64,000 bases of DNA from assembly GCA_050010515.1 (NCBI GenBank), contig JBEKKX010000013.1, forward strand, positions 32,001 through 96,000. The letters are read 5' to 3'. Origin of the DNA: Candidatus Bathyarchaeia archaeon (GTDB lineage Archaea > Thermoproteota > Bathyarchaeia > Bathyarchaeales > Bathycorpusculaceae). Positions within the stretch are counted from its first letter, which is position 1, and every line of letters starts with the position of its first letter. Positions 33,623-62,887 of the stretch are shown piece after piece. The notes under the pieces were generated by a model. The model had not been told where the DNA came from, ran no database searches, and was given only the letters and a program-made list of their open reading frames with translations. The translations under genes were made by a program, and so were the position numbers.

Positions 33623-33697
33623 GGGCGAGTAGCTCAGTACGGATAGAGCACCAGCCTCCTAAGTTGGGGGTCGAGGGTTCAAATCCCTCCCCGCCCG
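33623..33697 (+). tRNA. tRNA-Arg(CCT), intronless
   Basis: GGGCGAG/CCCGCCC acceptor (A6:C67 mismatch), GCTC/GAGC D arm, CCAGC-CTCCTAA-GTTGG, GAGGG-TTCAAAT-CCCTC. Confidence 0.93.
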
Positions 33698-33852
33698 CAT
33701 TTTGCTCAACTTTTGCCAAATTTAGCCTTATTTTTTGCAATTCATCCCTTGTTGTTGACATATTTATTTCTTTGTTCAAACATTTAGGCAAACTCGGTTA
33801 TTATCAAAAGAACCTAACCGTTGAAAAAAGTTCAAATTACGGAACCAAGCCA

Positions 33853-34599
33853 CTACTTCCATTTTGTCAATATTTCCTCCCTTTGGAAAGTAGCCTTGGC
33901 GACGTAAAGCAGAAGCAAATCAACCAACAAAAGAATGCCAGCAATGATGAGGAGGGTGATGGTGCTGCTGAGCTGTATTAAATTGAGTTCACCGGCGACA
34001 TAGATCGCTCCGAAGGGGAGAATCAAGAGTATTCCGATCTGTTGCGCAATCCGTACATCGCTCACCCTCGCCGAGACAATGACGTTCCATTCGACACTCA
34101 TTACGACCGCGAGAGGGACCATTAGAAAAAGGATAATGGCTGCATTCCAGTTAGGGAAAAAGTAGTAGCCCAATGTGCCATGTGTAACCAGATCCATGAG
34201 AACCATGAAGATTGTAGCTCCTCCCAAAATAGCGCCTATGGGCGGTAGGAAAGCTGCGATTCCCTTTCCGAGCAAGATTTCACTATCGGTCGTGGGAGTG
34301 ACCAAGAGCGGCTCGAGGCTCTTTTCGACTTTCTCGCCGATCAGGCTGTAGGAGGCAATAGCTGTTGGAATCATACCTGCAAGGATGAGATAGAAGAAAG
34401 AAAATGCAGGCAGAAGTATCGGGAGTTCCGACGCTGGGATTCCGCTTCCACCATTACTATGCCCTTCAAGCACGATTACAACAGGAAAAAGAAATGAGAC
34501 AATGAATGGAACGACAAGGATTGAATAGATTATGTTCTTCTTCTTTAGGAATATCTTGAAGTCCTTCAACGCGATGATCCATGACCTTGAGAGTCTCAT
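33853..34599 (-). CDS. ABC-2-type exporter permease, paralog of 21299-22033
   Basis: Same GEKVEKSLEPLL.TP motif and REEILTKWK C-terminus. Confidence 0.9.
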   Translation of the reverse strand: MRLSRSWIIALKDFKIFLKKKNIIYSILVVPFIVSFLFPVVIVLEGHSNGGSGIPASELPILLPAFSFFYLILAGMIPTAIASYSLIGEKVEKSLEPLLVTPTTDSEILLGKGIAAFLPPIGAILGGATIFMVLMDLVTHGTLGYYFFPNWNAAIILFLMVPLAVVMSVEWNVIVSARVSDVRIAQQIGILLILPFGAIYVAGELNLIQLSSTITLLIIAGILLLVDLLLLYVAKATFQREEILTKWK

Positions 34600-35516
34600 T
34601 TGGTTTGCCTCACGAGTTTAAGATAGGCATCCTCCAAGGTTGAGCCTACGACGGTGACGGATTGAACGTGGCCGCCGGCTCGGAATATCGTGTCCAAGAT
34701 AGTGACATTCTCTTTTTCGGGATTTGTTACATCGATAGTCAGTTTGTTGCCATCGATAATCAAGTTTCGAAGTGGTAGCTTTCTTAAAGCAGCTATTATC
34801 GCATCGCCTGCCTGCTCTATCTGAATTACTGTTTTCCTTCCTTGAACAGATTTCTCAAGTTCCTCGGGTGTGCCAATCGCCATCAGCTTGGTATTCAGTA
34901 TCCCAATCCTGTCGCAGATCCTCTGTGCCTCGTCAAGGTTGTGCGTGTTCAGGAAGATGGTCTTCTTCTCTTTCTTGAGCTCGATGATGAAATCCCGAAC
35001 AGTCTTTGAAGATTCTGGGTCGAGGTTCGCCGTCGGCTCGTCCATGAACAATATCTGAGGGTCGTGGATGAGGGCGCGTGCTATCGAGAGTTTTTGCTTC
35101 ATCCCTTTGGAGAAAGTTCCCGCTGCGACGTCCTTCTTCTCCCAGAGTTCGAGCATCTTGAGGAGGCGCTCGATATTCTCCTTCCTTTGCGCTGCTGTGC
35201 AATCGTATAACTTCCCATAAAAGTCCAGATTGTCGTAGGCGCTCAGGTCATCGTAGAGCCCCACGTTGTCGGGAACCAATCCAATGAGCTCTCTTATCTT
35301 CAGAGAATCCGCCTCGATGCCGACATCGTAATCCCCTATCCTGGCGTTCCCGCTCGTCTTTGAGATCAGGCAGCATAGCATCCTCACAGTAGTAGTCTTG
35401 CCCGCCCCGTTGGGACCAAGAAAACCGAAAACCTCGCCGTCGTCAACATGTAATGTTAGGCTATCTACAGCTGTTAGGTTCCCGAATTTTCTGGTTAAGT
35501 TTTCGGTGTCGATCAT
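34596..35516 (-). CDS. ABC exporter ATP-binding protein, paralog of 22030-22959
   Basis: Walker A/B, FSKGMKQ; long identical peptide stretches with the paralog. Confidence 0.93.
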   Translation of the reverse strand: MIDTENLTRKFGNLTAVDSLTLHVDDGEVFGFLGPNGAGKTTTVRMLCCLISKTSGNARIGDYDVGIEADSLKIRELIGLVPDNVGLYDDLSAYDNLDFYGKLYDCTAAQRKENIERLLKMLELWEKKDVAAGTFSKGMKQKLSIARALIHDPQILFMDEPTANLDPESSKTVRDFIIELKKEKKTIFLNTHNLDEAQRICDRIGILNTKLMAIGTPEELEKSVQGRKTVIQIEQAGDAIIAALRKLPLRNLIIDGNKLTIDVTNPEKENVTILDTIFRAGGHVQSVTVVGSTLEDAYLKLVRQTK

Positions 35517-35664
35517 TTTTAAATCTCTGATTTAATGGTTATCTTGATGATTTCTTATTTTACCTTTGAATAAACGGGATATATAAGTCTAAATTTTTAA
35601 GAGATACTCTCATTTGAGGTAGATGTTGAACCGCCTCATTTTATGAGACTGGTTCGGTTGACGC

Positions 35665-35745
35665 TTTGTTGGTAAAGACCCTATGTTCCTCAACTGGGTT
35701 AAAGAACTATTTCTCTACTACTGGGACAAAGGAAAGCGAGCTTAA
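35665..35745 (+). pseudogene. Orphan C-terminal fragment resembling DUF1724-type archaeal HTH regulators
   Basis: FVGKDPMFLNWVKELFLYYWDKGKRA*; in-frame TGA at 35659-35661 just upstream. Confidence 0.5.
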
Positions 35746-35773
35746 CACAAAACCTAATACCTCTTTAGACCAC

Positions 35774-35819
35774 ACCCGAGGGTTCAAACGAGGGCTCAAA
35801 CCTATCCCCGCCCGCCACA
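35774..35819 (+). repeat. tRNA-Arg 3'-end-derived repeat, copy A
   Basis: ACCCGAGGGTTCAAACGAGGGCTCAAACCTATCCCCGCCCGCCACA. Confidence 0.9.
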
Positions 35820-35956
35820 CATAATTCATGTTTAAAGCAAAAATCTTGCTTATTTTCTGCAAATAAGCTGTTCAAACCTTGCTGTGTTTTTGCGCCTGCA
35901 GTGTTATTGGTCATACAGGTACAAAAAGGGAAAAAAGAGGTTTTGCGCGCGCTGAA

Positions 35957-36664
35957 TTATGCGATTTTGAAGTAGACGCGTTTGTTGTTTTTTCCTTTGC
36001 TTTCAGCTTTAATCAGTTCTATTCTACCCACTTCCCGCAGACTGTGCACATGCGTACCTCCATCGGCTTGTCTATCTACGCCTTCTATTTCTACGATGCG
36101 AAGTACAGGTATGTCGGGCGGCAGGGCTCCCGCCATCTTAACTATACCTGGGATTTTCATCGTTTCCTCTTTCGGCAACTCATACCATTTTACAGGAATA
36201 TCCTTACTGAAGAGCTCATTCGCCTTAGCGACGTATTGATCTAAAATTTCCTTGTCGAAGTTTTCGAAGTTGAAATCAAAACGGATATAGTCTTCCTCAA
36301 GCTGATTGCCAGTAACGAGAGCTCCAGTTCCCACACATAAAAGTGAAGCAAACAAGTGTGCTGCCGTATGGCTCCGCATAAGTTTGTACCTTCGCGCCCA
36401 GTCTAGGACGCAGTGAACTCTATCTCCTTCTTTAAGACCTGCTCGATCCACCTCATGAGAAATTTCTCCTGAAAATTTTCCCACATAAACCACATTGTAA
36501 GTTTCATTGTCTTTGACGATTTTTCCAGTATCCCACGGTTGACCTCCTCCTTTAGGATAAAAAATGGTCTGATCAAGCACTACGTATTTTTGGTCCTTAA
36601 CGGAAACTACAACAGCGTTGCACTCTTTGAGATAACTGTCGTCTAAGAACAACATTTTTGTCAA
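35957..36664 (-). CDS. alaX: AlaX alanyl-tRNA editing protein
   Basis: FYPKGGGQP.D.G, HTAAH and DGGTH motifs; start TTG 36664 after GAGGT. Confidence 0.92.
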   Translation of the reverse strand: MTKMLFLDDSYLKECNAVVVSVKDQKYVVLDQTIFYPKGGGQPWDTGKIVKDNETYNVVYVGKFSGEISHEVDRAGLKEGDRVHCVLDWARRYKLMRSHTAAHLFASLLCVGTGALVTGNQLEEDYIRFDFNFENFDKEILDQYVAKANELFSKDIPVKWYELPKEETMKIPGIVKMAGALPPDIPVLRIVEIEGVDRQADGGTHVHSLREVGRIELIKAESKGKNNKRVYFKIA

Positions 36665-37236
36665 CAAGATGGTTACCTCACTTCTACAGATATCTAATCT
36701 GTTTAGGTTTAGAAGGATATATTTGTTCATTTTGCCTAAAAACTTATTGCGGAATAGACCTCTAAGCAGCAAAAAAGGAGGGAATCTCGGTCGAAATTAC
36801 AGTCTGGGAACGGTAACTCCTAGGTTACTATTTTTAGAGTATTATAGCGCACGCGGGTTTTTACTACGATCATTCTATCCTCTTGCATGGTCTTGGTCTT
36901 GATAAAATGGCATAATTTAACACATTAATGTCCTGCGTGGCTCACTATGATGCGATTACCACACTTAGGGCACTCATAATAAAGGAACTTTTTTTCACTG
37001 TTATATTTAGCTATCATTTCTTCGTAGCATGAAGGGCAAAGAGGAGCCCTCTTCATAGTTTTCATGGTTGAGTTTATGGCTGTTTTTGTTTTAAAATTTT
37101 GCTACTGCCTACATTATAGGCCCTTAAATGGTCTCGGTAAAAAAAAGAAAAGGGAATTGAAACTTCAAAGCAACAGTTATCATCACAACCCTTAAGAAAA
37201 AAAGCTCGCATAAAATCCTGAGAAGGAGAAAAATTC

Positions 37237-38127
37237 ATGCGGGCGTCAAGTTGGAGAGGAAAGCAGGCAAAAGCCGTTTTTCTCACTGTTTTAGCCGGTG
37301 TCTTGTGGGGGACCTCTTTTCCTGCCATAAAAATCGGTTTGAACTACGTTAACCCGTACTTATTTGTTTTCTTAAGATTTCTTTTAGCATCAGTGCTGAT
37401 GTTCTTGATACTGCTTATCACTAAGAAGCTCACTTATCCAATAAAACAGAAGAAACTAATCCTCTTCCTAGGTGTTACCAATGGAGTTGCGTACCTATCG
37501 CAGTACATCGGAATGAACTCTACTACAGCAGCAAAAGCAGCGCTCTTCGTAAACTTAAGCGTCGTCTGGGTGGCATTACTAAGCCCAAAGCTTCAAGGGG
37601 AAACATTGGGAAGAAGAAAAATATTTGGTGTTTTAGCTGCTCTAACCGGTATTATATTTGTGACGACTAACCTAGATTTCTCGATGTTAAGCGGAGGGCA
37701 ATTGATCGGGGATTTGTTACTAATTACTTCAGGAGTCATTTGGGCATTTTTCACAATATACAATAAAACCCTCGTAATGACAAGCAATGGTTTACTTCAA
37801 TCTTTAACATGGATCTTGCCCTTAACTCTGCTCCCGATGCTGCCCTTCGTCTTCTCCTCAGCATATCAGATCCCTGCGCTTCCCGCTCAAGCTTGGCTTG
37901 CCATAATTTATACAGCCGTTGTTTGCTGGATCGTTCCTTACTACTTATGGCTTGAAGGCTTAAAACACATCACAGCCTCAACATCCACAATCCTGCTTCT
38001 AACAGAAATATTAGTAGCCGCAGCAATTTCCTTCATTCTACTAAACGAGATATTCACTATTATCATGGTCTTCGGAGCTCTCCTCATAGTAATAGCCATA
38101 GTACTAGTATCCTATCGCGCCGACTAA
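37237..38127 (+). CDS. EamA/DMT family transporter
   Basis: LWGTSF..K, FLRF; about ten TM segments. Confidence 0.9.
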   Translation: MRASSWRGKQAKAVFLTVLAGVLWGTSFPAIKIGLNYVNPYLFVFLRFLLASVLMFLILLITKKLTYPIKQKKLILFLGVTNGVAYLSQYIGMNSTTAAKAALFVNLSVVWVALLSPKLQGETLGRRKIFGVLAALTGIIFVTTNLDFSMLSGGQLIGDLLLITSGVIWAFFTIYNKTLVMTSNGLLQSLTWILPLTLLPMLPFVFSSAYQIPALPAQAWLAIIYTAVVCWIVPYYLWLEGLKHITASTSTILLLTEILVAAAISFILLNEIFTIIMVFGALLIVIAIVLVSYRAD

Positions 38128-38359
38128 ATCTTAGCACACATTACAACGATTAATAGTCTGAATGAGCCAATCAACTATTGGTCAATTTAAGAAAATAACA
38201 AAAAAGGGCGCTAGTTTGTCCCGAAAATGGGCAAAAAAAGAAGAAGGATATCTACTTAATGGTGATGCTTTTCGCGCGTCGCGCTAACCCAAACCCAAAT
38301 CTCGATACCTAAAATTATAATTGTCAAGTTTTAAATAGTAATTAGGATAACGCAGTTCT

Positions 38360-38851
38360 ATGCAAATTACCGATTTAATCCGTTACAACCACTTCGTTCG
38401 CGAGCTTTATTTTGACGCTATGTCTAAATTGCCTTGGGCGCAGGTTGTCGAAGCTCGAGGTTTGAGTTTTGATTCTATGCGCAACGTGTTCTTGCATTTG
38501 ACACGTGTTGAGGACAGGGTAGTTAACTACGTAATTCCTGAACGGGACAAGGATTGGGTTGGCGTGGATTTTGATGCTTTCAAGAGCATGGATTCCTTGA
38601 AGGATTACATGTTACATGTGAAGGAAAAAACTGAAAACTACTTAGCGAATCTTTCAGCTGAAGAGCTAAACAGACAACTCGTTATCCCGTGGAGCGCCAC
38701 CTCAGAAACAAAAATAAGCATTGAAACAGTCTTAAACCACATTGTTTTGGAGGACATGATCCATTATGGCGAGTTATCGGCTGCTTTCTGGCAAATGGGT
38801 TTGCAAGCACCTTACATGAGCTTTTGGCAGTATAAACATCAGCACCCTTAA
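38360..38851 (+). CDS. DinB family protein
   Basis: YNH..R, S.RN..LH...E and H....D..HYGEL. Confidence 0.85.
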   Translation: MQITDLIRYNHFVRELYFDAMSKLPWAQVVEARGLSFDSMRNVFLHLTRVEDRVVNYVIPERDKDWVGVDFDAFKSMDSLKDYMLHVKEKTENYLANLSAEELNRQLVIPWSATSETKISIETVLNHIVLEDMIHYGELSAAFWQMGLQAPYMSFWQYKHQHP

Positions 38852-39081
38852 ACTAATCCGAAGCTCACGCCCCCTCAAAGGTCTAAAAGCTGAAAAGCGA
38901 AGTTTCTAAGAGACCAGCTAGAATTAACCATAAATTTATCATTTGATACAGTTTCCACATATCAACTACATTAAAGAAAGTATAATATCAGTTCCATATC
39001 ACATAATTTCGGGACAAGACAGCGCGCCAAGAAATTAAAAAACCAATCGACGCAAAGCCGATAGGCATATGCAACAAATTC

Positions 39082-40287
39082 TCAATTAACTTTTTCTTCA
39101 GGCATTTTCGTGTGTCGGAAGTAGTACCAAAACAGGCTAATAGAAACTATGTAAAATAAGGCAGCCAAAAAGAATGGTGCACCCAAAAGTCCCATGCCAA
39201 TCAGCCAGGCACCGACGAACGAACTCAATGCGCTGGGCAATCTCCAAAGAGCAGAGCTTACGCCTGAAGCCGCACCGCGCTCATCTTCCGCGACCAGCCC
39301 CATTATCATCGACTGCGCCAGCGGACTTGACATGTTCATAAGAAAGGCCCTTGACGTGTAAACAATGCTTGCCACTATGTAATTTGGAGACAGCGGCGTT
39401 GTAAACATGAATATGGTTGAAACAGCCTCCGTTACAACTATAGCGTTAACTACTCCAAATCTTTTCGCAAGCCAAGGAGCAGCAAGCGTAGCTACACCTA
39501 TTACAATGCTTGAAAAGCCCAAAATTGGACCACTTAACGAGTCGGGTATACCGTACTGCGCCTTCATCCAAGCAGTCATCAAAGGAACAACCATACCTGC
39601 GCCGAAAGCAATTATCGCGCCCGTGAGGGCATATTTCACCAAAACATTTTTAGACTTTCTTGGGAGCAGCTCACTCAAGGTTGCATTAGCTTTCGCGGAC
39701 CTTTTTGATTCGTTAACTTTGAACATTATAAGTGTAGAAGACAAACTCAGAACGGCAAGTATTACGTAGAGAAGAACGTGGCTTTCCTTATGCGTGAATC
39801 CACTCATCGTTGATGTCGCCAAGATTGCAATAGCGCCGAGGCCGAAGGCTGTGCTTTGAGCAAAGCCAAACATGGAGAAGACGCTGTTCCTCTTTGCATC
39901 TTCAGCCTTTTCTGCAAGCAACGCACTGCTAGATGAATAAGAAGCGGCTTCTGAAATTCCTTCGAAAATAGCAGCAATTATTAACAGTACTGGGTTTGTG
40001 GTTAAAGCGAAAACCGCGATGATGACACTTGCTATTATGTTGCCTACTATGAGCACCCGCTTTCTGCCGTATTTATCTGCTGCAATCCCCATGGGAACGC
40101 AGGTTGCAAAAGTGGATACGCCCATGACCGTTACGATGAGTCCCATGAGGTTGAAGGATAACCCTTGAACTGTGGTGAGAAAATAGGCTATGTCAGTGTA
40201 GAACATGCCGTAAGCTACGGAAGGCAGCACTGACGAGTAGATTAGGTATTTTGCCTCTTTCGTCATTCCTCTGTAGGTGTTGAACAC
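39082..40287 (-). CDS. MFS transporter
   Basis: GIAADKYGRKR motif A; about twelve TM segments. Confidence 0.92.
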   Translation of the reverse strand: MFNTYRGMTKEAKYLIYSSVLPSVAYGMFYTDIAYFLTTVQGLSFNLMGLIVTVMGVSTFATCVPMGIAADKYGRKRVLIVGNIIASVIIAVFALTTNPVLLIIAAIFEGISEAASYSSSSALLAEKAEDAKRNSVFSMFGFAQSTAFGLGAIAILATSTMSGFTHKESHVLLYVILAVLSLSSTLIMFKVNESKRSAKANATLSELLPRKSKNVLVKYALTGAIIAFGAGMVVPLMTAWMKAQYGIPDSLSGPILGFSSIVIGVATLAAPWLAKRFGVVNAIVVTEAVSTIFMFTTPLSPNYIVASIVYTSRAFLMNMSSPLAQSMIMGLVAEDERGAASGVSSALWRLPSALSSFVGAWLIGMGLLGAPFFLAALFYIVSISLFWYYFRHTKMPEEKVN

Positions 40288-40740
40288 TTAAACCAGCCCG
40301 ATTTTCGACTCAATTTGCTTCTTTATGCCAGAGCAAAGGTCAATTGGCTAGAAATGGTTTCGGCAACTGCAGCTTTAAGTTTTTCTCAGTCATTGTCACC
40401 AACACTCAAAAAGCATGTTTTTTGAATGGTAGATTCAATTATCTGGGGCTGTCGTTGCCAGTTCAAACAAAGAGCGACTCATTACCGAAGGTGCAAGATT
40501 TTCTCCAGAGTTAAGAGAATGCAAAGCAGTTTTCATTAGTTCATGACCTCCGATATATTACCATGGGTCTATAAGCTTCAATGCTGCAAGAGAAATCTTG
40601 CCAGTAACTACTGTTTGCTTCTTCAGCAGATTTTGCTCTCTTAAGCTGTTCTCTGATATCTGCAACCGAAGTCACAAGCGCGGCGCGCTGTGACCTTTAG
40701 CCAAGTGAACGTTTTCGGCTTTTCTTTGAGCTTCTTTACG

Positions 40741-41811
40741 TCAGGCTTGTTTCTTGGATTGCAGTTCTTTTGCTACGCTGTCGATTGCATTGATTGCTTT
40801 TTCGATATGAACTTTTTCTATCCCGCGATGCGTCACCATTCTTATGCTGTTCTTGGCCATGGTTGAGACTAAAACGTCCTTTTCCTTGAGCTTTAGAACG
40901 AACAGTTCATCTGAGGCTTCTAAATCGCTCATATCGAAACGAACCATGTTTGTCTGCACCGCATCTAAATCAACTTTGATCCCGTTTATCTTTGCTATTC
41001 CTTCTGCTAAGCGCCTGGCATTTTTGTGGTCTTCTTCCAATCTGTCAATCATCTTTTCAAGGGCAACAATGCCTGCCGCAGCTATTATGCCCGCTTGGCG
41101 CATTCCACCGCCCAAAACTTTCCGGGTTTTTCTGGCTTTCTCGATGAATTCTTGAGTGCCGACGACCACTGAGCCGACTGGGCAGCTTAGACTTTTAGAT
41201 AGGCAGAACATCAGGCTGTCTACATGCTTTGTGAACTCTTTTACGTTAACCTTTGAGGCTACGGCAGCGTTGAATATTCTTGCTCCGTCCATGTAGAATT
41301 TCAAGTCATATCTTTTGGCCACTTCGCTTATCGCTCGCATTTGATCAGGAGTGACTATTGTTCCCCCATATCTGTTGTGAGTATTTTCAATGCATATCAG
41401 AGAGGGCACTGGAAAATGGATGTTCTTCGGTCTTATCGCTGCTTCAATGTCTTCTGGATCGATCGCTCCCAAGTGACTCTTTATTATCCACGGTAGTAGT
41501 CCAGCAATTGCAGATACCCCTCCTCCTTCATACCAGTAAATATGAGATTCCGCTTCCAAGAATACTAGTTCTCCGCGTTTTGCATTGTTCATCAAAGACA
41601 ATAGGTTTGCTTGCGTGCCGCTTGTGACTAAAAGAGCCGCTTCTTTTCCCATCTTCTCGGCTGCCATTTCTTCAAGCTTTTTAACCGTTGGGTCTTCCCC
41701 GTAAACATCGTCTCCTAGTTCTGCATGTCGAATTGCCTCCAGCATCTCCTCTGTGGGCAATGTCACTGTGTCGCTTCGCAAATCAATTATTTCTTTGCTT
41801 GCCATTCCCAT
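40741..41811 (-). CDS. ltaE: Low-specificity L-threonine aldolase
   Basis: DLRSDTVT, GDDVYGEDP, SGTQAN, DGARIFNA, CLSK and GGGMRQ. Confidence 0.94.
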   Translation of the reverse strand: MGMASKEIIDLRSDTVTLPTEEMLEAIRHAELGDDVYGEDPTVKKLEEMAAEKMGKEAALLVTSGTQANLLSLMNNAKRGELVFLEAESHIYWYEGGGVSAIAGLLPWIIKSHLGAIDPEDIEAAIRPKNIHFPVPSLICIENTHNRYGGTIVTPDQMRAISEVAKRYDLKFYMDGARIFNAAVASKVNVKEFTKHVDSLMFCLSKSLSCPVGSVVVGTQEFIEKARKTRKVLGGGMRQAGIIAAAGIVALEKMIDRLEEDHKNARRLAEGIAKINGIKVDLDAVQTNMVRFDMSDLEASDELFVLKLKEKDVLVSTMAKNSIRMVTHRGIEKVHIEKAINAIDSVAKELQSKKQA

Positions 41812-41975
41812 CTTATCTTCTCCTAAAGTGAACAGTCTACCTTTTGAGAAAGCAATAGGTTCTTGCTTTAAAGTTTTCTCTCGAACCTTAAGAAAGCAAA
41901 AAAATATTAGAGGCATTTTGCGTTGACTTTAAAGTTGAATCGTGCAAGTCGCCTGTTTGATAGGCTGAATGCTTG

Positions 41976-42887: not shown

Positions 42888-42964
42888 TTTTCGACCTGCC
42901 GCGGGGGTGCATATTGGGCACTTTGCTTATGAAACTTTCGGCGTTGTTTGCAATATAAATTTTT

Positions 42965-53083: not shown

Positions 53084-53198
53084 CTTTAAGCACCTAAAAG
53101 ACTGATAATAATAGTTTGCTACAGTACTATAAATTATGTGCGGACAAACTCTTCTTTCAACGGAGTACGTGAGCATCGACCTTGCTAAACTAAGGGCA

Positions 53199-53223
53199 AG
53201 GGTTCAAATCCCTCCCCGCCCGC
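53199..53223 (+). repeat. Exact 25-nt direct repeat of the tRNA-Arg 3' end (att-like)
   Basis: AGGGTTCAAATCCCTCCCCGCCCGC is identical to 33674-33698; downstream flank also similar. Confidence 0.92.
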
Positions 53224-53351
53224 TTTGCCCCTTTTGCCAATTGGAACTTGATTTTTGAATATTTAGGAAAATAAGGCTTAGAAATCGCGCGCGCTGCGCA
53301 CACAATCAAAACCAACGTTAGACTCTACATAGTCAATACACGCGTTAAAAA

Positions 53352-53699: not shown

Positions 53700-53832
53700 G
53701 ACCTAGCCTTCAATTCAACATGGGTAGGCTACTTATAGCCAAAGTTGGATATTAGATTTACTTGAACAGCGCTGATGCCAAATCTTATTTACATCAAACC
53801 CGAATATCAGGTTCAGCGCAGAGGCAAAAGAT

Positions 53833-55011: not shown

Positions 55012-55028
55012 CAAAAGCATCAGATAGG

Positions 55029-55934
55029 ATGATGAAAATGTCTAATTCGATCAAAGAAACCGACGACTACTTTCACACCGCAGAAAAGGAACTAGACTGG
55101 CGAGAAAGCTACTACTTCAACTTTGCAGATCCCGAAAACAAAACAGCTGGATTCACCACCATAGGGATTCTGCCCAACCAGAAGAAAGGAGAATTCATCC
55201 TAGCTCTATTTCACGAAGACAAACAAATGGTCTACTACAAGGAACAAACACCCATAAATGATCAATCATTGGGCCTTCTCTCAGATAGAACCCTGACCTA
55301 CAAGCTTGTCGAACCCATGAAGAAATGGGAAATCAATCTCGCCAGCGAAAACCTCAACGTGCACTTCCAGTGGAAAGCCCGATTTCCGCCGTTTGATTTT
55401 GGAAAGGGAAGCGGAACCTCTTGGAAAGCGCACTTTGAACAGTCAGGCACGGTCGAGGGAGAAGCAACACTCCCCGACGGAAGAAAAATCCGAATCAGAG
55501 GCTACGGTCAGCGCGACAAGAGCTGGGGGACTCGAGACTGGCACATAGAAAATTGGTTCGCATTCCACGCGCAGTTTCAAACATATGCCATCGGCTTACG
55601 AAAAGACACCGTAAACGGCTCTCCTCACATCTCAGGAGGGTTGTCCTCCGCGAAAAAACAGACGGCAGCCTCTCAAATAGACCTGCAAATAAACTACGAG
55701 AAAGACGACACGAAAACCCCAACCGGAGCCTCGACGACAATACACTACGCAGACGGAAAAGTCGACACGCTCGTTTCCAAACTGATTTCACCCAAGAGCT
55801 TCGTCAAGTTCTCAAGAAGCTTCCCAAAAGGAACCACAGAACTCTTCGAAGGAATGGCAATACACGAGTGTACCACTACGGGAGAAAAAGGAACCGGACT
55901 CATCGAATTCCTCTTCACGCACCCAAAGCCTTAG
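55029..55934 (+). CDS. AttH/CrtC/tocopherol-cyclase-like beta-rich protein (DUF7064/7065-like)
   Basis: WRESYYFNF, HFEQSG.V.G and GQRDKSWGTRDW motifs. Confidence 0.7.
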   Translation: MMKMSNSIKETDDYFHTAEKELDWRESYYFNFADPENKTAGFTTIGILPNQKKGEFILALFHEDKQMVYYKEQTPINDQSLGLLSDRTLTYKLVEPMKKWEINLASENLNVHFQWKARFPPFDFGKGSGTSWKAHFEQSGTVEGEATLPDGRKIRIRGYGQRDKSWGTRDWHIENWFAFHAQFQTYAIGLRKDTVNGSPHISGGLSSAKKQTAASQIDLQINYEKDDTKTPTGASTTIHYADGKVDTLVSKLISPKSFVKFSRSFPKGTTELFEGMAIHECTTTGEKGTGLIEFLFTHPKP

Positions 55935-56027
55935 TCCAGCAAGTAAACGTTGAACTTGTGCAAAGACATCGGCAAAACTAAAGCAATTTCAAATCGAAGA
56001 AGCCGAAATGTTCTGTTATATGTGCCC

Positions 56028-56291
56028 TCATGATACGGTTATGGCTTTCTGGGGACATGCTGTCACGCATTTTCCGCAGTGGGTGCACAGATCCAGCCAG
56101 ACCGCCGTTATTTGCCAGAATTGCGGATCATTGCGGTTTGCCTCTTTGGCTCCGAGGGTTTCGTGGCGAAGGAAAATCGCCGGATCACAAACCTTGAGGC
56201 AAACACTGCATTCTCGAGGGTCAATGCCACCAGTCGCATTTCCACATTTCGAATAATCAATTCGAATTCTCGTTTTCTTCATCATCAACAA
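56028..56291 (-). CDS. Small 4Fe-4S ferredoxin-like protein
   Basis: C...CSVCLKVC and CTHCGKCVTACP. Confidence 0.85.
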   Translation of the reverse strand: MLMMKKTRIRIDYSKCGNATGGIDPRECSVCLKVCDPAIFLRHETLGAKEANRNDPQFWQITAVWLDLCTHCGKCVTACPQKAITVS

Positions 56292-56300
56292 CTTGTCTCG

Positions 56301-57170
56301 CTAGTACATGTTGGCAATTCCCGGAACGCTTTCCCTGGGAATCAGCGTAATCGCGCCGAACTTACAACGATCTCTGCAAAGTCCGCAGCCGAAACATTTG
56401 TTTTGGTCAATTACTGTTCTACTCAACGTAGGCGAATACCTTAGTGCCCCAAATTGGCAATAGGAAACGCACGCCCTGCAACCTTGACAAAGGTCGGGGT
56501 TGACGTCGGCAACGTACTCTGCCTTATAGACGGCACCCAAGCCAAAGTCGGTTCGAAGCCTAAGACCTCCACACTGAGGGACCTCGCAAGAACAAATCGC
56601 GTTAACATAAGGGACAGGCTGGAACCAGACCGTTGCGATTCTTCCTTTCTTGTTCTGCTCCTCCAAAGCCGCAACAGCCTCTTCCCTACCCAACCTGAAC
56701 TTGGTTTTTTCAGGAATAAACCGGGGCAACTTCTCGATCACACCCGACAGGCAACCGAAGTTGATGCAGCACACATCCTTAACTCCCCTCTGCATCATCC
56801 TGCACATACAGTAGTTCTGAATTATAGGTTCAGCCGCCAAGTTCATCATGATAAGCTTGGCTTCTTCAATAGGAATTACCTGCCCAAAATGCCCGTCCGC
56901 TCTAACCGGATTCCGATTCTTGCTCTCAGAATGAATCATGCTTTCAGCCTTCCAACGCACTACGCGTCCGATAATTGGCATTTTAAGCTTGTAGCCCATC
57001 CCTATAGAAGAGAGACCCATGATCTTACGGATGTAGACTGTCTCAAAGTTTCTCCACTGCTCCTCAAGATAAGCTTCAAGATTCTGACTATCCGCAAGTT
57101 CATTGGAGTAGTTCTTAGCGTTAAGATACCACTTTCCACCTGCACCGTGTTTCATGCACCACTTACACAT
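56301..57170 (-). CDS. Fe-S protein with C-terminal 2x[4Fe-4S] ferredoxin domain
   Basis: MCKWC..HG, CMCR, ICSC....C, CQGCRACVSYC and CFGCGLCRDRC. Confidence 0.88.
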   Translation of the reverse strand: MCKWCMKHGAGGKWYLNAKNYSNELADSQNLEAYLEEQWRNFETVYIRKIMGLSSIGMGYKLKMPIIGRVVRWKAESMIHSESKNRNPVRADGHFGQVIPIEEAKLIMMNLAAEPIIQNYCMCRMMQRGVKDVCCINFGCLSGVIEKLPRFIPEKTKFRLGREEAVAALEEQNKKGRIATVWFQPVPYVNAICSCEVPQCGGLRLRTDFGLGAVYKAEYVADVNPDLCQGCRACVSYCQFGALRYSPTLSRTVIDQNKCFGCGLCRDRCKFGAITLIPRESVPGIANMY

Positions 57171-57300
57171 TGGAAAATCACTTAAGCCGCAAAGTCAATA
57201 GCTTAAGTTACACTCGTCTAGGTATTTAAAAATTAGGTAACGCCAAGACAGAGCGAAAACGAACGGAGGAAAAAGAACGAGAACAAAACTTAAGCCCAAC

Positions 57301-58275
57301 TTGAATTCTGAACCACTAAGTCACCAGCCCGGAGCCGACCGAGAATGGAACGAATCATACTACTTCGTTTTCTACTCAAAAGAACAAGAATTCGGCGGCA
57401 TTACAAGACTGGGTTTCAAACCGAACAAACAAGAGGGTATGACCTTTTTTCTTCTCTTCCTGCCCGACGGAACAGTTGCCATGCACCAGACCACAGAAAA
57501 AATAGGAAACTCCAGCTACCCCAAAGTACCAAGCGTTAACGGCATGCTACACCAAAGGAACGACAACGGCACATGGAACTACAATTTCAGCGGCAACATG
57601 ATGCTCCTTAAAAACCCACAAGACCTCCTTAAGATACGAGAAAAACCATCCTTGATATCTGGAATTCAGAAGGCCACAATGGACCTCACTTTCACACCCA
57701 TAAACAAAGTCTACGAATACAGCAGCCACATGACAACGGAGAGTCGCGAACTCGGAAAAAAAGCTGGCGACGCTCACTGGGAACAGATCGCCAAAGTGAA
57801 AGGTAAAGTTGTCCTGGGCAACCGATCATTCAACGTAATTAACGTTCTTGGACAGAGGGACCACACTCACGGCGTACGCGACTGGACTGGAATCGGAAGC
57901 TGGCTCTACTACGTTATCTGGTTTTCCGAACGACTGGCCGTAAACCCTGCAGCCCTAATTTCTGACGAAGGAAAAGTATCCACAGGAGGGTTCATTTTCA
58001 AAAACGGAAGGAACATTCCAATTACGAAAATTCGTGTCCTGGACCAGCAGTTCAGCGACGACATCTTCCCCGTCAACTCAAAACTGGAGCTTGTCGATGA
58101 AGACGGCCACACTCATGTACTGAAAGGAAAAGCAGGACCAGCAGTTCCGATCCCCTTCAGCGACGAAAAAGGACGAACTTCCATTCTTACACAGTCTTTC
58201 GGAACTTTCGAAATGGACGGTCTGTCTGGTGGTTACGGAACATTTGAAACATTACGGGCAAACCGCGCATCCTAG
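57301..58275 (+). CDS. Second AttH/CrtC-like protein, paralogous to 55029-55934
   Basis: WNESYYFVF, HWEQ..KV.G and GQRDHTHGVRDW motifs. Confidence 0.7.
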   Translation: MNSEPLSHQPGADREWNESYYFVFYSKEQEFGGITRLGFKPNKQEGMTFFLLFLPDGTVAMHQTTEKIGNSSYPKVPSVNGMLHQRNDNGTWNYNFSGNMMLLKNPQDLLKIREKPSLISGIQKATMDLTFTPINKVYEYSSHMTTESRELGKKAGDAHWEQIAKVKGKVVLGNRSFNVINVLGQRDHTHGVRDWTGIGSWLYYVIWFSERLAVNPAALISDEGKVSTGGFIFKNGRNIPITKIRVLDQQFSDDIFPVNSKLELVDEDGHTHVLKGKAGPAVPIPFSDEKGRTSILTQSFGTFEMDGLSGGYGTFETLRANRAS

Positions 58276-58370
58276 ACCGTGTATTTGCGCGATTTTCACT
58301 TAGGCTTAAATACGAAGCGCCTCAAACGTAATACCCTACCCGTGTTGCCAAGCAAAGAGGAGAAACAACA

Positions 58371-60101
58371 ATGGACAGCTCTAACAGCTCTGAGAAAGAA
58401 GTTATATGGACAAGAGGCTATTCAGACGACTACTGGAATGACCCTGTTTCCCCCCTGTTTTTCGAGCTGCTCGGGGACCAACTAACCCAAATTGTTAACA
58501 CTGAACTCAATGGAATTATGGGATATTCCCGCCTGGGCTCGGGAGAAACTGATAAGCTCCTGAGGCTGTATCATGGTCACGCATACTTCAACCTTGAAGT
58601 TCTCAAACGGAAGGTTGAGTACGAGATCCCTCCATTCGTTCGCAACGACGACATCCTAAACTACTTCATGGAAGGCAGTGGACCATACGGCAAAAAAACC
58701 ATGAAAAATCAGCCTTTCAAACTGAACAAGAGAGTTTTGGCGGAAATCCGAGTGATGCTCTATGACGGTCAAGGCTCGATAACAAAAACAAACTCGGCAT
58801 ATGAAAAATGGACCAAAGAGAAATTTGACCCATTCTGGCAAAATTTCGATTCACGAATAGCAAAAATCAACTTGGAAGGCGACCAATCGGACCTCTTAGA
58901 ACTGGCTGGAGAGCTGGATCGGTTAATGATCGGGCACTTCCGTCTCGTACGGTACGGGATCCCGGTCCACAACATCGGGATGAATCTGATAGCGCAATAC
59001 CTTCTGGGACGCTTCATAGGCCAAGAAGCAACTGAGATCTACCCGCTTTTAATATCTGGTCTCGAGCACAAAACAAGCGAAATGAACGAGCGTCTCGTCA
59101 AGCTCGCCGGTATGATACGAACTTCAACCCCTACAAAATCGCTAATCCTAGAAACACCTTCAAATCGCCTTTTCACAGTTCTAATGGCAGATAATACTCC
59201 GCAGTCAGAAGAATTTAAGCAAGAATTGAAGTCGTTCTTACGCGATTTCGGAGTCAGAGGCTTCACCAGAGAACCATATTACCCGCGCTGGCACGAAGCT
59301 CCCGAATACGTTTTCGACATCTTGAAATCATTAATCCAGGATCAAATTCCAGTAAAAAAAGAACAGAAAATTGCACGAAAGCTACAAACAAGCAGGATTG
59401 AACACAGAATAAAGAAGCGGCCGCTAGGCTGGTTCAAATGGCAACTACTCTCAGTAATTCTTGGGTTCGCAAGAAAATACATAGTATTTCGCGAGAACCA
59501 GCGATACAACCTGGACCGATGGATCACCATGAACCGCAGAATCTACATGGATATCGGAAGGAACCTGCAAAAACACGGATTCTTGGAGGACCCTTCAGAC
59601 ATATTCTTTCTCCGAAAAAACGAAATACGAACCCTGATCTCCAGAAAAGGAATCGATGAAGACCAAACCAGAATCCGCCAGGCAGTTTCAAGCAGGAAAG
59701 CCGAGTTTCTTAAGTATGAACACGTGACTCCAGCCAAGTTCCTACAGGGATCTACGGAATTCAATGATCCAGAGAGAAACACCGGCTTCATCCTGCATGG
59801 GCTTCCCGCCAGCCAAGGCAGACTAACCGGAACCGTCCGAGTCCTAAACCGCGTTGAAGAAATTGGAGACGTGCATGCTGGCGAAATACTCGTCGTTCCT
59901 CGAACTGACCCCGGATGGACTCCTGTGTTCAGCAAAATAGGAGGCTTGATCACCGAAACCGGCGGAATCTTATCGCATGGCGCCGTAGTATCCAGAGAAT
60001 ACGGAATTCCCGCCGTTACAAACATCCAAAACGCTTGCCAACTGCTCCACAACGGCCAAACCGTAACGATTGACGGTTCAAAAGGTATCATCTCCATATA
60101 G
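58371..60101 (+). CDS. PEP-synthase/rifampicin-phosphotransferase-like protein (substrate-binding plus phospho-His domains, no ATP-grasp)
   Basis: WTRGY..DYW.DPVSPL, FL.DFG.RG, P.W.E.P, TDPGWTP.F and ETGGILSHGAVVSREYGIPAV. Confidence 0.88.
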   Translation: MDSSNSSEKEVIWTRGYSDDYWNDPVSPLFFELLGDQLTQIVNTELNGIMGYSRLGSGETDKLLRLYHGHAYFNLEVLKRKVEYEIPPFVRNDDILNYFMEGSGPYGKKTMKNQPFKLNKRVLAEIRVMLYDGQGSITKTNSAYEKWTKEKFDPFWQNFDSRIAKINLEGDQSDLLELAGELDRLMIGHFRLVRYGIPVHNIGMNLIAQYLLGRFIGQEATEIYPLLISGLEHKTSEMNERLVKLAGMIRTSTPTKSLILETPSNRLFTVLMADNTPQSEEFKQELKSFLRDFGVRGFTREPYYPRWHEAPEYVFDILKSLIQDQIPVKKEQKIARKLQTSRIEHRIKKRPLGWFKWQLLSVILGFARKYIVFRENQRYNLDRWITMNRRIYMDIGRNLQKHGFLEDPSDIFFLRKNEIRTLISRKGIDEDQTRIRQAVSSRKAEFLKYEHVTPAKFLQGSTEFNDPERNTGFILHGLPASQGRLTGTVRVLNRVEEIGDVHAGEILVVPRTDPGWTPVFSKIGGLITETGGILSHGAVVSREYGIPAVTNIQNACQLLHNGQTVTIDGSKGIISI

Positions 60102-60279
60102 CAACATCCGCAAATTCTGCAACGACCGATGATTTTTTCTTTCCAATCAAATACAGCACGTTGCGCGCGCTCTACAATGTTGACTGTAAATATGGATATT
60201 TAGTCTGTTTTTGTTCTCAAGCATTTGCTAAATATACAAAAAGTCCTTCACCTTGGCTATAAGCTAGCGCATTAGGTAA

Positions 60280-60843
60280 TCAACTAATTATTTTCTTTAT
60301 AGCCGCTGCTACTTCTATTGCAGGTTTGTTTGAATTTACGATAATCCATTTGCCCAAAAAAGCTAGCGAAAGCGCTTTGGTTCTAACCTCACTCAACGCG
60401 TCAAAGTCCTCAAACATTTCCCTCTCGCCACGAGACTTTGCAATCCGAGAAAGTGCCTCCTCTGGATTAACGTCTAAAAAAATCATTATTTCCGACTGGG
60501 GTACAACAAAGGCAAAAAAATGGTAAGCGATTTTATGTAGAGGCGCAGGCAAATAAGCCGTACCCATCAGGTACCTCACGAAAATTATATAATCGACCTT
60601 TCGCCACGAATAAAGCAGAATTGAACGTATTACATCAATCATGTAGAATAACGCAGCGGCGAAATGTGCACTCTTGCCGCTTGAATACAGAAACTGGCGC
60701 GCTTTAACTCCGAAGAAATTGTCCTTTTCAGGGTGAACACGCAAACACACGGTTTTTCCTCCTTTTTCCAGAAACTTCAAGATAAACTGTGCTTGGGTGC
60801 TTTTCCCAGAACCGTCTAATCCATCAATTATGATTAAAGTCAA
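60280..60843 (-). CDS. Thymidylate kinase-like P-loop kinase
   Basis: IDGLDGSGKSTQ and FLDV.PEEA..RI. Confidence 0.8.
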   Translation of the reverse strand: MTLIIIDGLDGSGKSTQAQFILKFLEKGGKTVCLRVHPEKDNFFGVKARQFLYSSGKSAHFAAALFYMIDVIRSILLYSWRKVDYIIFVRYLMGTAYLPAPLHKIAYHFFAFVVPQSEIMIFLDVNPEEALSRIAKSRGEREMFEDFDALSEVRTKALSLAFLGKWIIVNSNKPAIEVAAAIKKIIS

Positions 60844-60844
60844 A

Positions 60845-61561
60845 TTAAGCCCATCCCTTCAGAAGAAGAAGCAGCAAAGCGCCGAGGAAAGGAACAGTTA
60901 TGTTATCAAAGCCTCGCGGTGTAAGTGCTTCAGCAACCGTAGCCACAGCAGCCACCGCCAAAGCAATTAAAACTGAACTGAAAAGGGGAAGAGAATAAAA
61001 AGCGGAAAAAAATAATAGACTAACCTCAAAACTTACAAAACTAAACGCAAACATTGCAACTGAACCCTCAAGGCTTTTTTTGGCAAGAATCCGGAAATGC
61101 CGCTTCCCAAACTTTTCACCAACCAAAGAAGCCGCAGCATCACCATAAGCCATAGGCAAAATCCCCGCAGCAATAACGTAAGGCTTCGCCGAAAAAAACC
61201 AAGCCAAAACGGTGTAAGAGATAGCGTAAAACACCAAACCCAACTGATGACCACCTTTAGTCACCTCAGTCAACTCCGACATTTTCCTGCTAAGACTCTT
61301 TACCGGAGAGTAAGGCGAAACCAGAAAAGTTACAAAAACAAACGGCACTGCAACGAAGAAAGGAAAGTTCAGCGGAAATGTGTTGTATGAGAAAAACGGA
61401 ATAAGAAAAGGCAAATTCCCGATCATTATGTGCAGGAACTTGCGAGAAGAATTCCGAGATAAACCACGCCCGATTTTTCCCGTGACCAAAATCACAATTA
61501 GAATATACCCGTAGCAGGAGCCAAGCAGTGCCAAATTTGCCCAAGCTTCAGTGTCAAGCAT
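60845..61561 (-). CDS. CTP-dependent polyprenol/diacylglycerol kinase family (phytol/dolichol kinase-like)
   Basis: SRKFLHI, GDAAASLVG..FG, KSLEGS and DNITVP. Confidence 0.88.
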   Translation of the reverse strand: MLDTEAWANLALLGSCYGYILIVILVTGKIGRGLSRNSSRKFLHIMIGNLPFLIPFFSYNTFPLNFPFFVAVPFVFVTFLVSPYSPVKSLSRKMSELTEVTKGGHQLGLVFYAISYTVLAWFFSAKPYVIAAGILPMAYGDAAASLVGEKFGKRHFRILAKKSLEGSVAMFAFSFVSFEVSLLFFSAFYSLPLFSSVLIALAVAAVATVAEALTPRGFDNITVPFLGALLLLLLKGWA

Positions 61562-61567
61562 GGATGC

Positions 61568-62428
61568 TCACCTAAACATGCCGAAAATGAACGCGAGCAA
61601 ACCCACGATGAAAAGAATTAGAACAAGTTTCTTGATTCGGCGAGCGTTCTCACGTGAAGGATTCTTGACCAATAACACTGAACACTCGACCAAACCAAAA
61701 TCAGTAACTAACACAAAAGGAACAAACCAAAAAGAAACCAAACCCAAAACCACCGGAAGCGGAGAAAGACAAATTGCAAAACCGTAAAACGACGCTGCCG
61801 CCGCCGCAGCCTTCAACTCGCCGAAACGCACGGCAAGAGTCTTAACATTCTTGGCGCTATCCCCTTTAACGTCCACGATGCCCTTCGTGATTTCTCTACC
61901 CGTGTTCGAAAGGAACGCCATAGAAGCAAAAAGCAGGACGTTAAGCCGAACCGCATTAACTGCCACCAAATTTCCATACAGAAAAGGCGTAGCCACACAT
62001 GCACTAACTAAGAAGTTGCCTGGCAGTCCACTTCGCTTTCCCACAGTCGTATAAGTTAGCATAAGCGCCCAGGCAACCACAGCGACCACAAGACAAACAA
62101 TACTTGTGAGGAAAGCGAAAACAAAACCCACCACAGAAAGGACACCAGCGAAAATCAACGCACCTTTAACAGTTACTACGCCGCTGGGAATCGGACGCGT
62201 AGGCTCATTTATCGCGTCAATGTGGCGATCGTAGTAGTCATTCACAGCCATGGCAGCCGCTGTTAAAGTGAAACCAGTCAACGCCCCAAACAAAATGTTT
62301 AGCCCAAAAAAGTTTGAGAAACTCGGATTCCCCAAAACCGCACCCACTAGAACAGCGAAACTCATCATCACACAATTTATCGGCCTCATCAACTTAACAA
62401 AACCGCTAACTTCGTGTGCACCCCTCAA
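61568..62428 (-). CDS. Digeranylgeranylglyceryl phosphate synthase (UbiA family)
   Basis: RPIN, NDYYD..ID.IN.P.RPIPSG, GN and REI.K.I.D..GD. Confidence 0.9.
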   Translation of the reverse strand: MRGAHEVSGFVKLMRPINCVMMSFAVLVGAVLGNPSFSNFFGLNILFGALTGFTLTAAAMAVNDYYDRHIDAINEPTRPIPSGVVTVKGALIFAGVLSVVGFVFAFLTSIVCLVVAVVAWALMLTYTTVGKRSGLPGNFLVSACVATPFLYGNLVAVNAVRLNVLLFASMAFLSNTGREITKGIVDVKGDSAKNVKTLAVRFGELKAAAAAASFYGFAICLSPLPVVLGLVSFWFVPFVLVTDFGLVECSVLLVKNPSRENARRIKKLVLILFIVGLLAFIFGMFR

Positions 62429-62639
62429 CCTCTCCCCTCCGATGCTCTAAAATGCGACGCTTACATTTATAAATTCAACCTTAACGCCGCGTTCAAGTCT
62501 TTCCTAATTACGTCACAGCCGTTATTGATAGTAGCATTTTTCTCGGTGAGAGCGCGCTTAATTCCGGTCCGTTTCAGCTACAATTGATTTGCCATCTTCA
62601 GATATGATTTAGTGCAAAATTGCTTACTGAACCTCCTGA

Positions 62640-62710
62640 ATCAAATCTATCACTTCAATCCATAACCCGAGGGTTCAAACGCGGGCTCAAACCTATCCCC
62701 ACCCGCCACA
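62640..62710 (+). repeat. tRNA-Arg 3'-end-derived repeat, copy C, with upstream extension
   Basis: ATCAAATCTATCACTTCAATCCATA-ACCCGAGGGTTCAAACGCGGGCTCAAACCTATCCCCACCCGCCACA. Confidence 0.9.
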
Positions 62711-62737
62711 GATGTCCCCGCACATTTCGAGTGGGTG

Positions 62738-62887
62738 TTACTTGTGTTTTCTGAAAACCTTGTTGCTTCCGAAATCGCAGACAAACTCAAAACCGACTTC
62801 TAAAAGTTGACAGGGTTTCCTCTTCTGGCTGTTCCGCACTGGCAACGAGTCATCCTGGTACTCATCGTTTTCTCTGCTTATTGTCAT
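62738..62887 (-). pseudogene. Probable C-terminal remnant of a tyrosine integrase
   Basis: 49-codon frame ...ENDEY...CQLLEVGFEFVCDFGSNKVFRKHK*, resembling (from memory) the C-tail of bathyarchaeal integrases; ends 27 nt from repeat C. Confidence 0.55.

Follow-up and report, generated by a model that had tools for sequence, protein, structure and literature searches.

A stretch of 64,000 nucleotides (nt) from a Candidatus Bathyarchaeia archaeon (contig JBEKKX010000013.1, positions 32,001-96,000; here called the window, with positions counted from its first letter) carries a tRNA-Arg(CCT) gene followed by four blocks of cargo genes, each of which ends in a repeat resembling the 3' end of that tRNA. 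We refer to a block of cargo together with its own 3' repeat at the distal end as a cassette (A to D, ending in repeats R1 to R4). The differences in gene content between related genomes break at the repeats, and the same cassettes stand in a different order behind the tRNA in other members of the genus. In our view it is likely that site-specific recombination both assembled this array and reshuffled it, with an integrase acting in trans. Little is known of how accessory genes move in the Bathyarchaeia, an abundant and uncultured class; the stretch described here recurs in peat and wetland metagenomes of 16 studies. In the genome labels used below the window is G000:C13:32001-96000, where G000 is the source assembly (2.38 Mb, 66 contigs) and C13 the contig with the island.

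The four repeats lie downstream of the tRNA, all of them on the plus strand and all intergenic, and no copy was found upstream of the tRNA or on the minus strand within the window. A preliminary description of this DNA, made from the letters alone, had reported the same arrangement of four co-oriented repeats of the tRNA-Arg(CCT) 3' half with none upstream or on the opposite strand. The repeat search and alignment agree with it in number and orientation, but the repeats fall into two sequence classes and are not equal copies. R1, R2 and R4 belong to a class of 46-49 nt, which we named m49. They are 90-95% identical to one another and 64-70% identical to the tRNA 3' end, and they look like a T-arm plus acceptor 3' half in which 12 nt of the T-arm are duplicated internally. 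R3 represents a pseudo-tRNA class: it matches the tRNA 3' end over positions 53194-53226 with 91% identity, its 25-nt core (53200-53224) has a single mismatch to the tRNA (expected matches 0.00, 100 shuffles), and its leftward extension, from about 53171, is a diverged pseudo-tRNA. The R3 variant is also present in G046, G077 and locus L075. A third class of fragment, type-A, occurs in relatives.

The sequence shared exactly by the four repeats and the tRNA is an 11-nt core, TCCCCGCCCGC, with one change each in R2 and R4; it lies in the 3' acceptor and T-arm part of the tRNA, the whole of which is 100% identical in 10 congeners. To the left of R2, about 25 nt are also common to R4 and to a pseudo-tRNA in locus L127, whose m49 copy is itself a nearly full-length pseudo-tRNA-Arg. 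Across the whole assembly, strict repeat copies are restricted to the island, and the contrary pattern envisaged in the preliminary description, copies scattered through the genome in both orientations, was not seen. Looser m49-like pieces were found elsewhere in G000 at C39:19316-19350, C19:924-956 and C20:29704-29725, together with a 24-nt tRNA-Arg-like fragment at C15:44389-44412.

The gene content of the island was assessed by comparing it, one open reading frame (ORF) at a time, with the tRNA-Arg regions of eight congeners (G001, G005, G012, G046, G056, G070, G072 and G075), and G077 was examined besides. The ORFs of the relatives were taken from a greedy longest-ORF script, with no gene finder, and short or overlapping genes among them may be wrong. 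Among the 26 island ORFs, 22 have no homologue in the matching interval of the eight congeners; the exceptions are ABC matches at the level of paralogues and, in G046, the cysteine synthase with 96% identity. The gene that directly follows R4 is the first conserved gene in six of the eight (85-96% amino-acid identity), while G005 and G072 have different downstream gene content. The interval between the tRNA and this conserved gene measures 3.1-20 kb in those six congeners, compared with 29 kb in G000. The right flank of R4 and the sequence immediately after the tRNA in G077 are 77% identical, and the R4 flank also matches beside the tRNA or beside an m49 copy in L078, L127 and L129; such a pattern is expected of a last remnant that lies against the tRNA's original flank.

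Breakpoints in gene content between relatives coincide with the repeats, as the preliminary description would have it, and in three cases they lie within the shared 11-nt core. Co-oriented tRNA-Arg 3' fragments were found in G012 and G046 (three each, those of G012 being m49 copies behind the tRNA), G077 (four), G075 (two), and G056 and G070 (one each); with the four of G000, all 18 fragments in seven arrays have the orientation of the tRNA. More broadly, at least 14 of the 61 genomes of the genus have a second co-oriented partial tRNA-Arg-like 3' copy within 20 kb, as counted by eye among the matches listed. The genes in the congener intervals are cargo only, and include an LPG-synthase transmembrane protein, a glycosyltransferase, GH130, PAS histidine kinases, a Na/Ca exchanger, a luciferase-like monooxygenase, a glutamyl-tRNA reductase and hemerythrin, among others. 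The island thus combines the features by which tRNA-anchored additive islands are recognized: an intact tRNA gene at one edge, co-oriented tRNA 3' repeats at the block boundaries, and conserved flanks that enclose variable content, whose breakpoints lie at the repeats. An integrase within or beside the island, a further such feature, is found in the congeners G054, G049, G017 and G016 and not in the G000 island.

In many congeners (G016, G002, G054, G062, G064, G067 and others) the tRNA-Arg(CCT) matches extend only from about position 10-23 to position 76. The 5' end is unrelated and ARAGORN calls no tRNA-Arg; non-canonical introns, split genes or replacement of the 5' part by upstream insertions may be involved.

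Individual cassettes can be followed as units from genome to genome. Cassette C (1184 nt) is 95.6% identical in G000 and G046, and is preceded by R2 in the former and by the genuine tRNA in the latter; the homology sets in within the core and extends as far as the end of the R3 core. Likewise, the 2145 nt of cassette A (33674-35817) are 96.2% identical to G077:C10 71177-73320. This cassette is preceded by the tRNA in G000 and by R3, after the cysteine synthase, in G077, and the matching sequence is again bounded by the core on the left and by the end of the R1 core on the right. The 128-nt leader of cassette B stands after R1 in G000 and after a type-A fragment in G077; these two repeats share only about 13-15 nt, which is too little for ordinary homologous recombination. 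The order of units is consequently permuted: in G000 the tRNA is followed by A-R1, B-R2, C-R3, D-R4 and the conserved gene; in G077 by a unit X with a type-A fragment, then B-R2, C-R3, A-R1 and onward; and in G046 by C-R3, a small unit with a long fragment, a kinase-exchanger unit with a type-A fragment, and the conserved gene.

The exchanged repeats have only about 11-15 nt in common, and every break falls within the core; these joints therefore point to site-specific recombination and not to homologous exchange. A rival account without a site-specific recombinase, in which general (homologous or illegitimate) recombination joined dispersed tRNA-like repeats, could draw on the up to 36 identical bases common to R2 and R4, enough for occasional homologous exchange, on the looser m49-like copies on three other contigs, and on the fact that the island is devoid of an integrase. 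The observed joints, however, pair repeats of different classes (tRNA with m49, tRNA with R3, m49 with type-A), the fragments are without exception co-oriented, and the genus possesses integrases that use exactly this site. General recombination is an improbable source of the array, and the joints were presumably made by an integrase.

The island itself carries no such enzyme. Genome-wide profile scans gave no PF00589 or PF16795 match on contig C13, the matches being on seven other contigs of G000, and the claim that the cassettes lack intact integrases is thereby upheld. Pfam scans of 30 window ORFs revealed no integrase or other mobile-element gene. Searches of the island by tblastn with integrases of the relatives recovered only the peptide encoded by the attachment (att) site, at the tRNA and at R3, and no split PF16795 integrase ORF with an att site, the SSV-type feature, was found in the window.

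Elsewhere in the genus, tRNA-Arg genes are targeted by integrases of two kinds. SSV-type arrangements occur in G054 at tRNA-Arg(CCT) and in G049 at tRNA-Arg(TCT): a short Int(N) ORF overlaps the tRNA, a PF16795 Int(C) ORF of 294-334 amino acids (41 bits) overlaps the distal fragment, and the att site, read on the minus strand, gives one and the same peptide in the two ORFs. According to the available part of a review (PMC8371274), an att peptide common to Int(N) and Int(C) is the hallmark of the SSV type, whose integrase gene is split by its own integration. The complete element of G054 is about 8 kb long with many small ORFs, and in G017 a PF16795 ORF (35 bits) starts in the tRNA. The source genome contains an integrated element of this type as well, 5.6 kb long, at tRNA-Arg(GCG) (G000:C7:17248-22903), in which a 96-residue ORF overlaps the tRNA and a 312-residue PF16795 ORF overlaps a 46-nt distal tRNA fragment. 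A classical integrase is present in G016, where a PF00589 ORF (56 bits) begins 7 nt after a tRNA-like sequence and a 31-nt fragment lies 5.4 kb downstream. A supposed homology between the flank of this G016 fragment and the left end of cassette A was rejected, only about 8 nt being common to them. In some genomes (G070, L121) Int(N)-like ORFs were noted just upstream of the tRNA.

The m49 repeats can be related to these integrases only tenuously. The motif occurs in 17 stretches with 18 copies, all of them in Bathyarchaeia or Bathyarchaeota records of metagenome-assembled genomes (MAGs). Its reverse complement translates as a variant of the att peptide, with the 12-nt duplication in frame, and at locus L124 an Int(N)-like ORF, 38% identical to the Int(N) of G049 (E = 4e-7), reads through m49. 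As regards m49 as a coding remnant of an integrase, the reading frames differ among the 18 copies; the left arm of type-A, a possible Int(C) remnant, has a conserved frame in four copies, with no long ORF found.

Taken as a mechanism, these observations suggest an additive island on tRNA-Arg(CCT), which would have grown by repeated site-specific recombination at the 11-nt core TCCCCGCCCGC. Each cassette would consist of cargo plus a distal attR-type remnant, in which a tRNA-like left arm of element origin (m49 or pseudo-tRNA) is attached to the core, and the last remnant, R4, would abut the ancestral flank downstream of the tRNA. Tyrosine integrases acting in trans could then insert or excise cassettes that have no integrase, or change their order, always as whole units. 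The likeliest sources of the enzyme would be the tRNA-Arg-targeting mobile elements of the genus, with their split SSV-type "suicidal" integrases and a classical one. Circular cassette intermediates presumably exist, and both the acting integrase family and the direction of each cassette move are matters that we infer.

Alternatively, each block may be the decayed remnant of an integrase-bearing element that was serially integrated and lost its integrase in place; the blocks would be inert, and the differences between genomes would be independent insertions and deletions. Serial integration with split integrases does trap elements, as described in the portion of the review available to us (PMC8371274), and complete elements are seen at the same tRNA in G054 and at tRNA-Arg(GCG) in G000. 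The proximal-to-distal order also fits accretion, with R4 next to the presumed ancestral flank. Cassette A is difficult to reconcile with such a history: having identical ends at different att sites in G000 and G077, its move postdates the loss of any integrase, unless the very same deletions took place twice. Moreover, of 23 cassette proteins that were scanned in relatives (10 and 6 in two scans, plus 7 ORFs in G012), not one belongs to an integrase or mobile-element family, 22 being members of ordinary cellular families and one of none, and block B is a plain chromosomal segment in G046. Inert serial remnants thus appear to us a rather unlikely explanation. That the cassettes need an integrase in trans is still something we infer, strengthened because the integrase-less, 2.1-kb cassette A has identical ends at different att sites in two genomes.

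Several observations nevertheless weigh against the proposed recombination in trans. Exact identity between m49 and the tRNA is limited to a core of 11-13 nt, and with the search patterns used no fragment was found in three of the eight congeners (G001, G005 and G072). Gene content varies away from the repeats too: the DinB gene (38360-38851) is missing inside cassette B in G077, in G046:C8 and in one metagenome run. The lack of any integrase, Int(N) or Int(C) remnant on C13 means that the enzyme is not pinned to the island; no ORF of more than 143 amino acids contains any of the 18 m49 copies, and the link between m49 and an integrase comes from locus L124 only. Blocks B and D are found as ordinary chromosomal segments in G046:C8 and G050:C1, with no att-like repeats adjoining. 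The guanine-plus-cytosine content of the cassettes (44.4-49.2%, compared with 42.6% for the genome, standard deviation 2.3% in 5-kb windows) is only mildly raised, so that a foreign-element origin of the cargo is not supported by composition, which was set aside as a weak sign. Finally, the assembled contigs of four metagenome runs, the only form of these data that was compared, contain no clean excision or circle junction. As to the DinB region (38176-39037), one metagenome run has 47 other letters in place of the gene.

The cargo is accessory: two marker proteins, the Opp binding protein and a 576-residue PEP-utiliser, each occur in 4 of the 61 genomes of the genus, G000 included. Block B (35948-51966) is collinear with a region on another contig of G046 (C8), with 75-95% amino-acid identity, and tRNA-Asn fragments that were looked for beside it there were not found. 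The main cluster of block D is collinear with G050:C1. The remaining three genes of D, a trio of a Tmk-like gene, a gene of unknown function and UbiA (60275-62490), are 92-94% identical in nucleotide sequence to G077:C10 7095-9308 and G046:C13 3104-5483. In G077 the trio lies between two 17-nt copies of the tRNA-Ser(GGA) 3' end (region C10:5131-11308), and in G046 it lies about 300 nt from tRNA-Ala(TGC) (region C13:3104-5730). Judging by these sequence comparisons, the cargo looks like host-type accessory operons that were relocated into the array. The preliminary description had proposed a serial gene-capture hotspot. Its repeat-bounded blocks and their breakpoints are borne out, but since two of the blocks are repeat-free chromosomal segments in relatives, "capture" here includes the relocation of host operons and is not confined to foreign DNA.

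A mis-joined MAG contig, with the error at the short shared repeats, would be a trivial explanation of the array. The source is indeed a MAG, independent contigs assembled at k=31 break at R2 and R4, which share 31-mers, and no independent contig connects D with the conserved gene across R4. The comparison used the assembled contigs of four metagenome runs (21 runs exist as contigs), in which starts, rare variants and circles are not visible. One contig of an unrelated 2024 run spans 33644-47559, and hence the tRNA, A, R1 and B, while others span R2 to R4. The arrays of G077, where B-R2-C-R3-A-R1 lies on a single 141-kb contig, and of G046, with tRNA-C-R3, are independent, and the right flank of R4 is the conserved downstream flank of the tRNA. 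A mis-join is accordingly very improbable.

Three junctions in the metagenome contigs were considered as traces of recombination and not used. A joint from 33698 to 35776 in run X6 has only 24 nt on its shorter side; a backward joint in the same run, from 35947 to 33672, has a depth of 3.9; and a loose end after 52072 in run X2 equals the right flank of R4, and is most simply the R4 contig itself, in view of the 36 nt shared by R2 and R4 and of the position of R4 beyond the stretch compared. Contigs C9 and C51 of G000 both end in the same repeat of about 130 nt with a hairpin-like motif, probably a repeated element that breaks assembly.

The repeats might also have a function in RNA or in regulation, as tRNA-like terminators, as processing signals or as attC-like hairpins, instead of being recombination scars. 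They are intergenic, and among 21 m49 copies aligned from other MAGs, nine (L120, L122-L124, L126, L128, L129, L133 and L135) have a conserved left arm of about 170 nt; this arm, with its TATA-like run and a segment similar to the 5' end of tRNA-Arg, could be an RNA gene or an attP arm. The three m49 copies of G000, however, are without the long left arm, the tRNA is the sole Rfam match, no repeat having matched any RNA family, and both strands of the four repeats fold no better than shuffled sequences (z -0.80 to +0.97), which provides no sign of an attC-like hairpin. As the positions of the repeats are those of the synteny breaks, a functional RNA role is hardly to be expected.

Arrays of related design are known in several systems. 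SSV-type integrases and "gene capture" in archaeal chromosomes were reportedly described by She et al. in 2001. As in the SSV-type gene capture outlined in the available part of the review (PMC8371274), insertion is into a tRNA gene, the inserted DNA is flanked by direct repeats of the tRNA's 3' part, and it is left without a working integrase, mobile only with a complete integrase from another element; in addition, congeners carry such split PF16795 integrases at tRNA-Arg. Unlike in that system, the island contains no Int(N) or Int(C) pieces, cassettes go down to a single gene, the cargo is of cellular type only, and three att classes occur together in one array. The host differs too, being a mesophilic peat lineage of Bathyarchaeia, whereas the table of hosts in the part of the review that was available is hyperthermophile-centred (Sulfolobales, Thermococcales, Archaeoglobales and Methanosarcinales; PMC8371274).

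Bacterial additive islands such as fGI1 of Alteromonas, as far as the available text describes them (PMC4119200), likewise have a conserved tRNA target, a length that varies between strains by cassettes, and lifestyle or metabolic cargo. Here the island is archaeal, the cassette ends are defined to the base by the cassette's own tRNA-like remnant, and cassette order is permuted between genomes. The tycheposons of Prochlorococcus had been put forward as the precedent in the preliminary description. The likeness in tRNA fragments holds: in the part of the account available (bioRxiv 10.1101/2020.12.28.424599), cargo elements lie at tRNA genes beside islands, tandem elements are separated by partial tRNAs, scattered partial tRNAs accompany degraded remnants, and newer insertions push older ones inward. 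Yet tycheposons are bacterial, use other recombinase families and, according to the same text (bioRxiv 10.1101/2020.12.28.424599), bring their own integrase and replication or packaging hallmark genes, none of which was detected by Pfam among the 30 ORFs; the closest archaeal precedent is SSV-type gene capture.

Integrons are comparable in that they form an array of promoter-less or short cassettes, each with its own site at one end, which are reshuffled as units by a recombinase encoded outside the cassette. Here, in contrast, no IntI-type integrase with attI adjoins the array (no PF00589 match on C13), the sites are derived from a tRNA and are not folded attC, the genes are of mixed orientation, and cassettes reach 16 kb. 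It is conceivable, if distinctly speculative, that Bathyarchaeia run an integron-like gene shuffling without a resident integrase. Several tRNA-anchored arrays, at tRNA-Arg(CCT), Ser(GCT), Ser(GGA) and Ala(TGC), with at least three site classes, would be served in trans by visiting suicidal integrases, and host operons such as Opp or the Tmk-like/UbiA trio would move as circles between arrays and strains.

In a separate observation, a second array without an integrase match was noted at G000:C5:12343-16309, where tRNA-Ser(GCT) is followed by two co-oriented 3' fragments at distances of 2.7 and 3.9 kb; the DNA between contains an ABC ATPase and ORFs of 134 and 288 amino acids. Single co-oriented fragments occur near tRNA-Leu(GAG), Val(GAC) and Asn in the same genome.

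In kind, the design matches tRNA-anchored additive islands, tycheposon islands and the capture of genes by suicidal integrases in archaea. The novelty lies in how its features combine: a mesophilic archaeal lineage, cassettes down to a single gene with no integrase remnants, three att classes within one array, and permutation that is precise to the base. In the literature on Bathyarchaeia integrases and tRNA integration, to the extent that its text was available (including PMC10848311), no description of tRNA-anchored cassette arrays in Bathyarchaeia was found. The locus and its relatives provide a base-resolution example of metabolic genes and operons stored as discrete units behind one tRNA, in an order that differs between close genomes and with no recombinase of their own. 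They also extend split SSV-type integrases to a mesophilic peat lineage, beyond the hyperthermophile-centred orders given in the available part of the review (PMC8371274). If mobilization in trans is true, natural populations of archaea would have in it a simple means of exchanging operons, and the tRNA core, m49 and pseudo-tRNA would serve as defined substrates for probing the specificity of archaeal integrases.

The features of the island are collected in Table 1.

Table 1. Features of the tRNA-Arg(CCT) island in window coordinates.
Feature	Position	Strand	Description	Basis
tRNA-Arg(CCT)	33623-33698	+	tRNA gene	ARAGORN; Rfam RF00005, 62.3 bits
R1	35771-35819	+	m49 class	Repeat family search and alignment
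R2	52024-52072	+	m49 class, 94% identity	Repeat family search, alignment
R3	53171-53224	+	Pseudo-tRNA-Arg fragment, about tRNA positions 23-76; last 25 nt near-identical to the tRNA	
R4	62662-62710	+	m49 class, 90% identity; last repeat of the array	
Cassette A	33699-35819		ABC-2 permease (33853-34599, -), ABC ATPase (34596-35516, -), terminal R1	Pfam
Cassette B	35820-52072		128-nt leader first, R2 last; about 16 kb	Pfam
Cassette C	52073-53224		Single PALP enzyme, cysteine-synthase-like (52100-53176, -), terminal R3	Pfam
Cassette D	53227-62710		Composite: cluster 53352-60101 and trio 60275-62490; ends in R4	Pfam
Presumed ancestral flank	62711-64000		First conserved gene 63048-64199 (-), extending beyond the window end	

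The contents of the blocks were determined by the Pfam scans of the 30 ORFs, and they agree with the earlier listing of an ABC pair, a transporter and peptide-ABC block, a cysteine synthase, and a phospho-His/ferredoxin cluster with three further genes. Cassette A comprises two genes in 2.1 kb, with non-coding ends of only 154 and 254 nt. In cassette B the genes are, in order, AlaX-like, EamA, DinB, MFS, a beta-eliminating lyase, a second EamA, a five-gene Opp-type ABC operon and GNAT. The cluster of cassette D encodes PEP-utiliser mobile-domain proteins, DUF7065/7064 proteins and a ferredoxin, and the unknown gene of its trio is 238 amino acids long. The genes of the cassettes have no uniform orientation. 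Gene stumps, which had been suspected at two of the boundaries, did not materialize: tblastn with integrase proteins and tblastx of seven intergenic pieces gave no pseudogene remnants. The 115-residue PEP-utiliser gene at the third repeat has a full-length counterpart in G050, to which it is 85% identical.

Some further features of the window were noted. A tRNA-Ser(GGA) with a 25-nt intron lies at 28806-28917 on the minus strand; it was found by the intron search of ARAGORN, is missed by default ARAGORN and by the Rfam gathering threshold, and accounts for one inverted-repeat match. Within cassette B, a perfect 43-nt tandem duplication (47530-47615) separates an Opp permease gene from the binding-protein gene; independent contigs break there, and the form found in one run skips 44 nt. 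Upstream of the tRNA, a second ABC-2 permease/ATPase pair (21299-22959, minus strand) is 58% and 75% identical to the pair of cassette A, and more copies of this pair occur on contigs C58 and C18.

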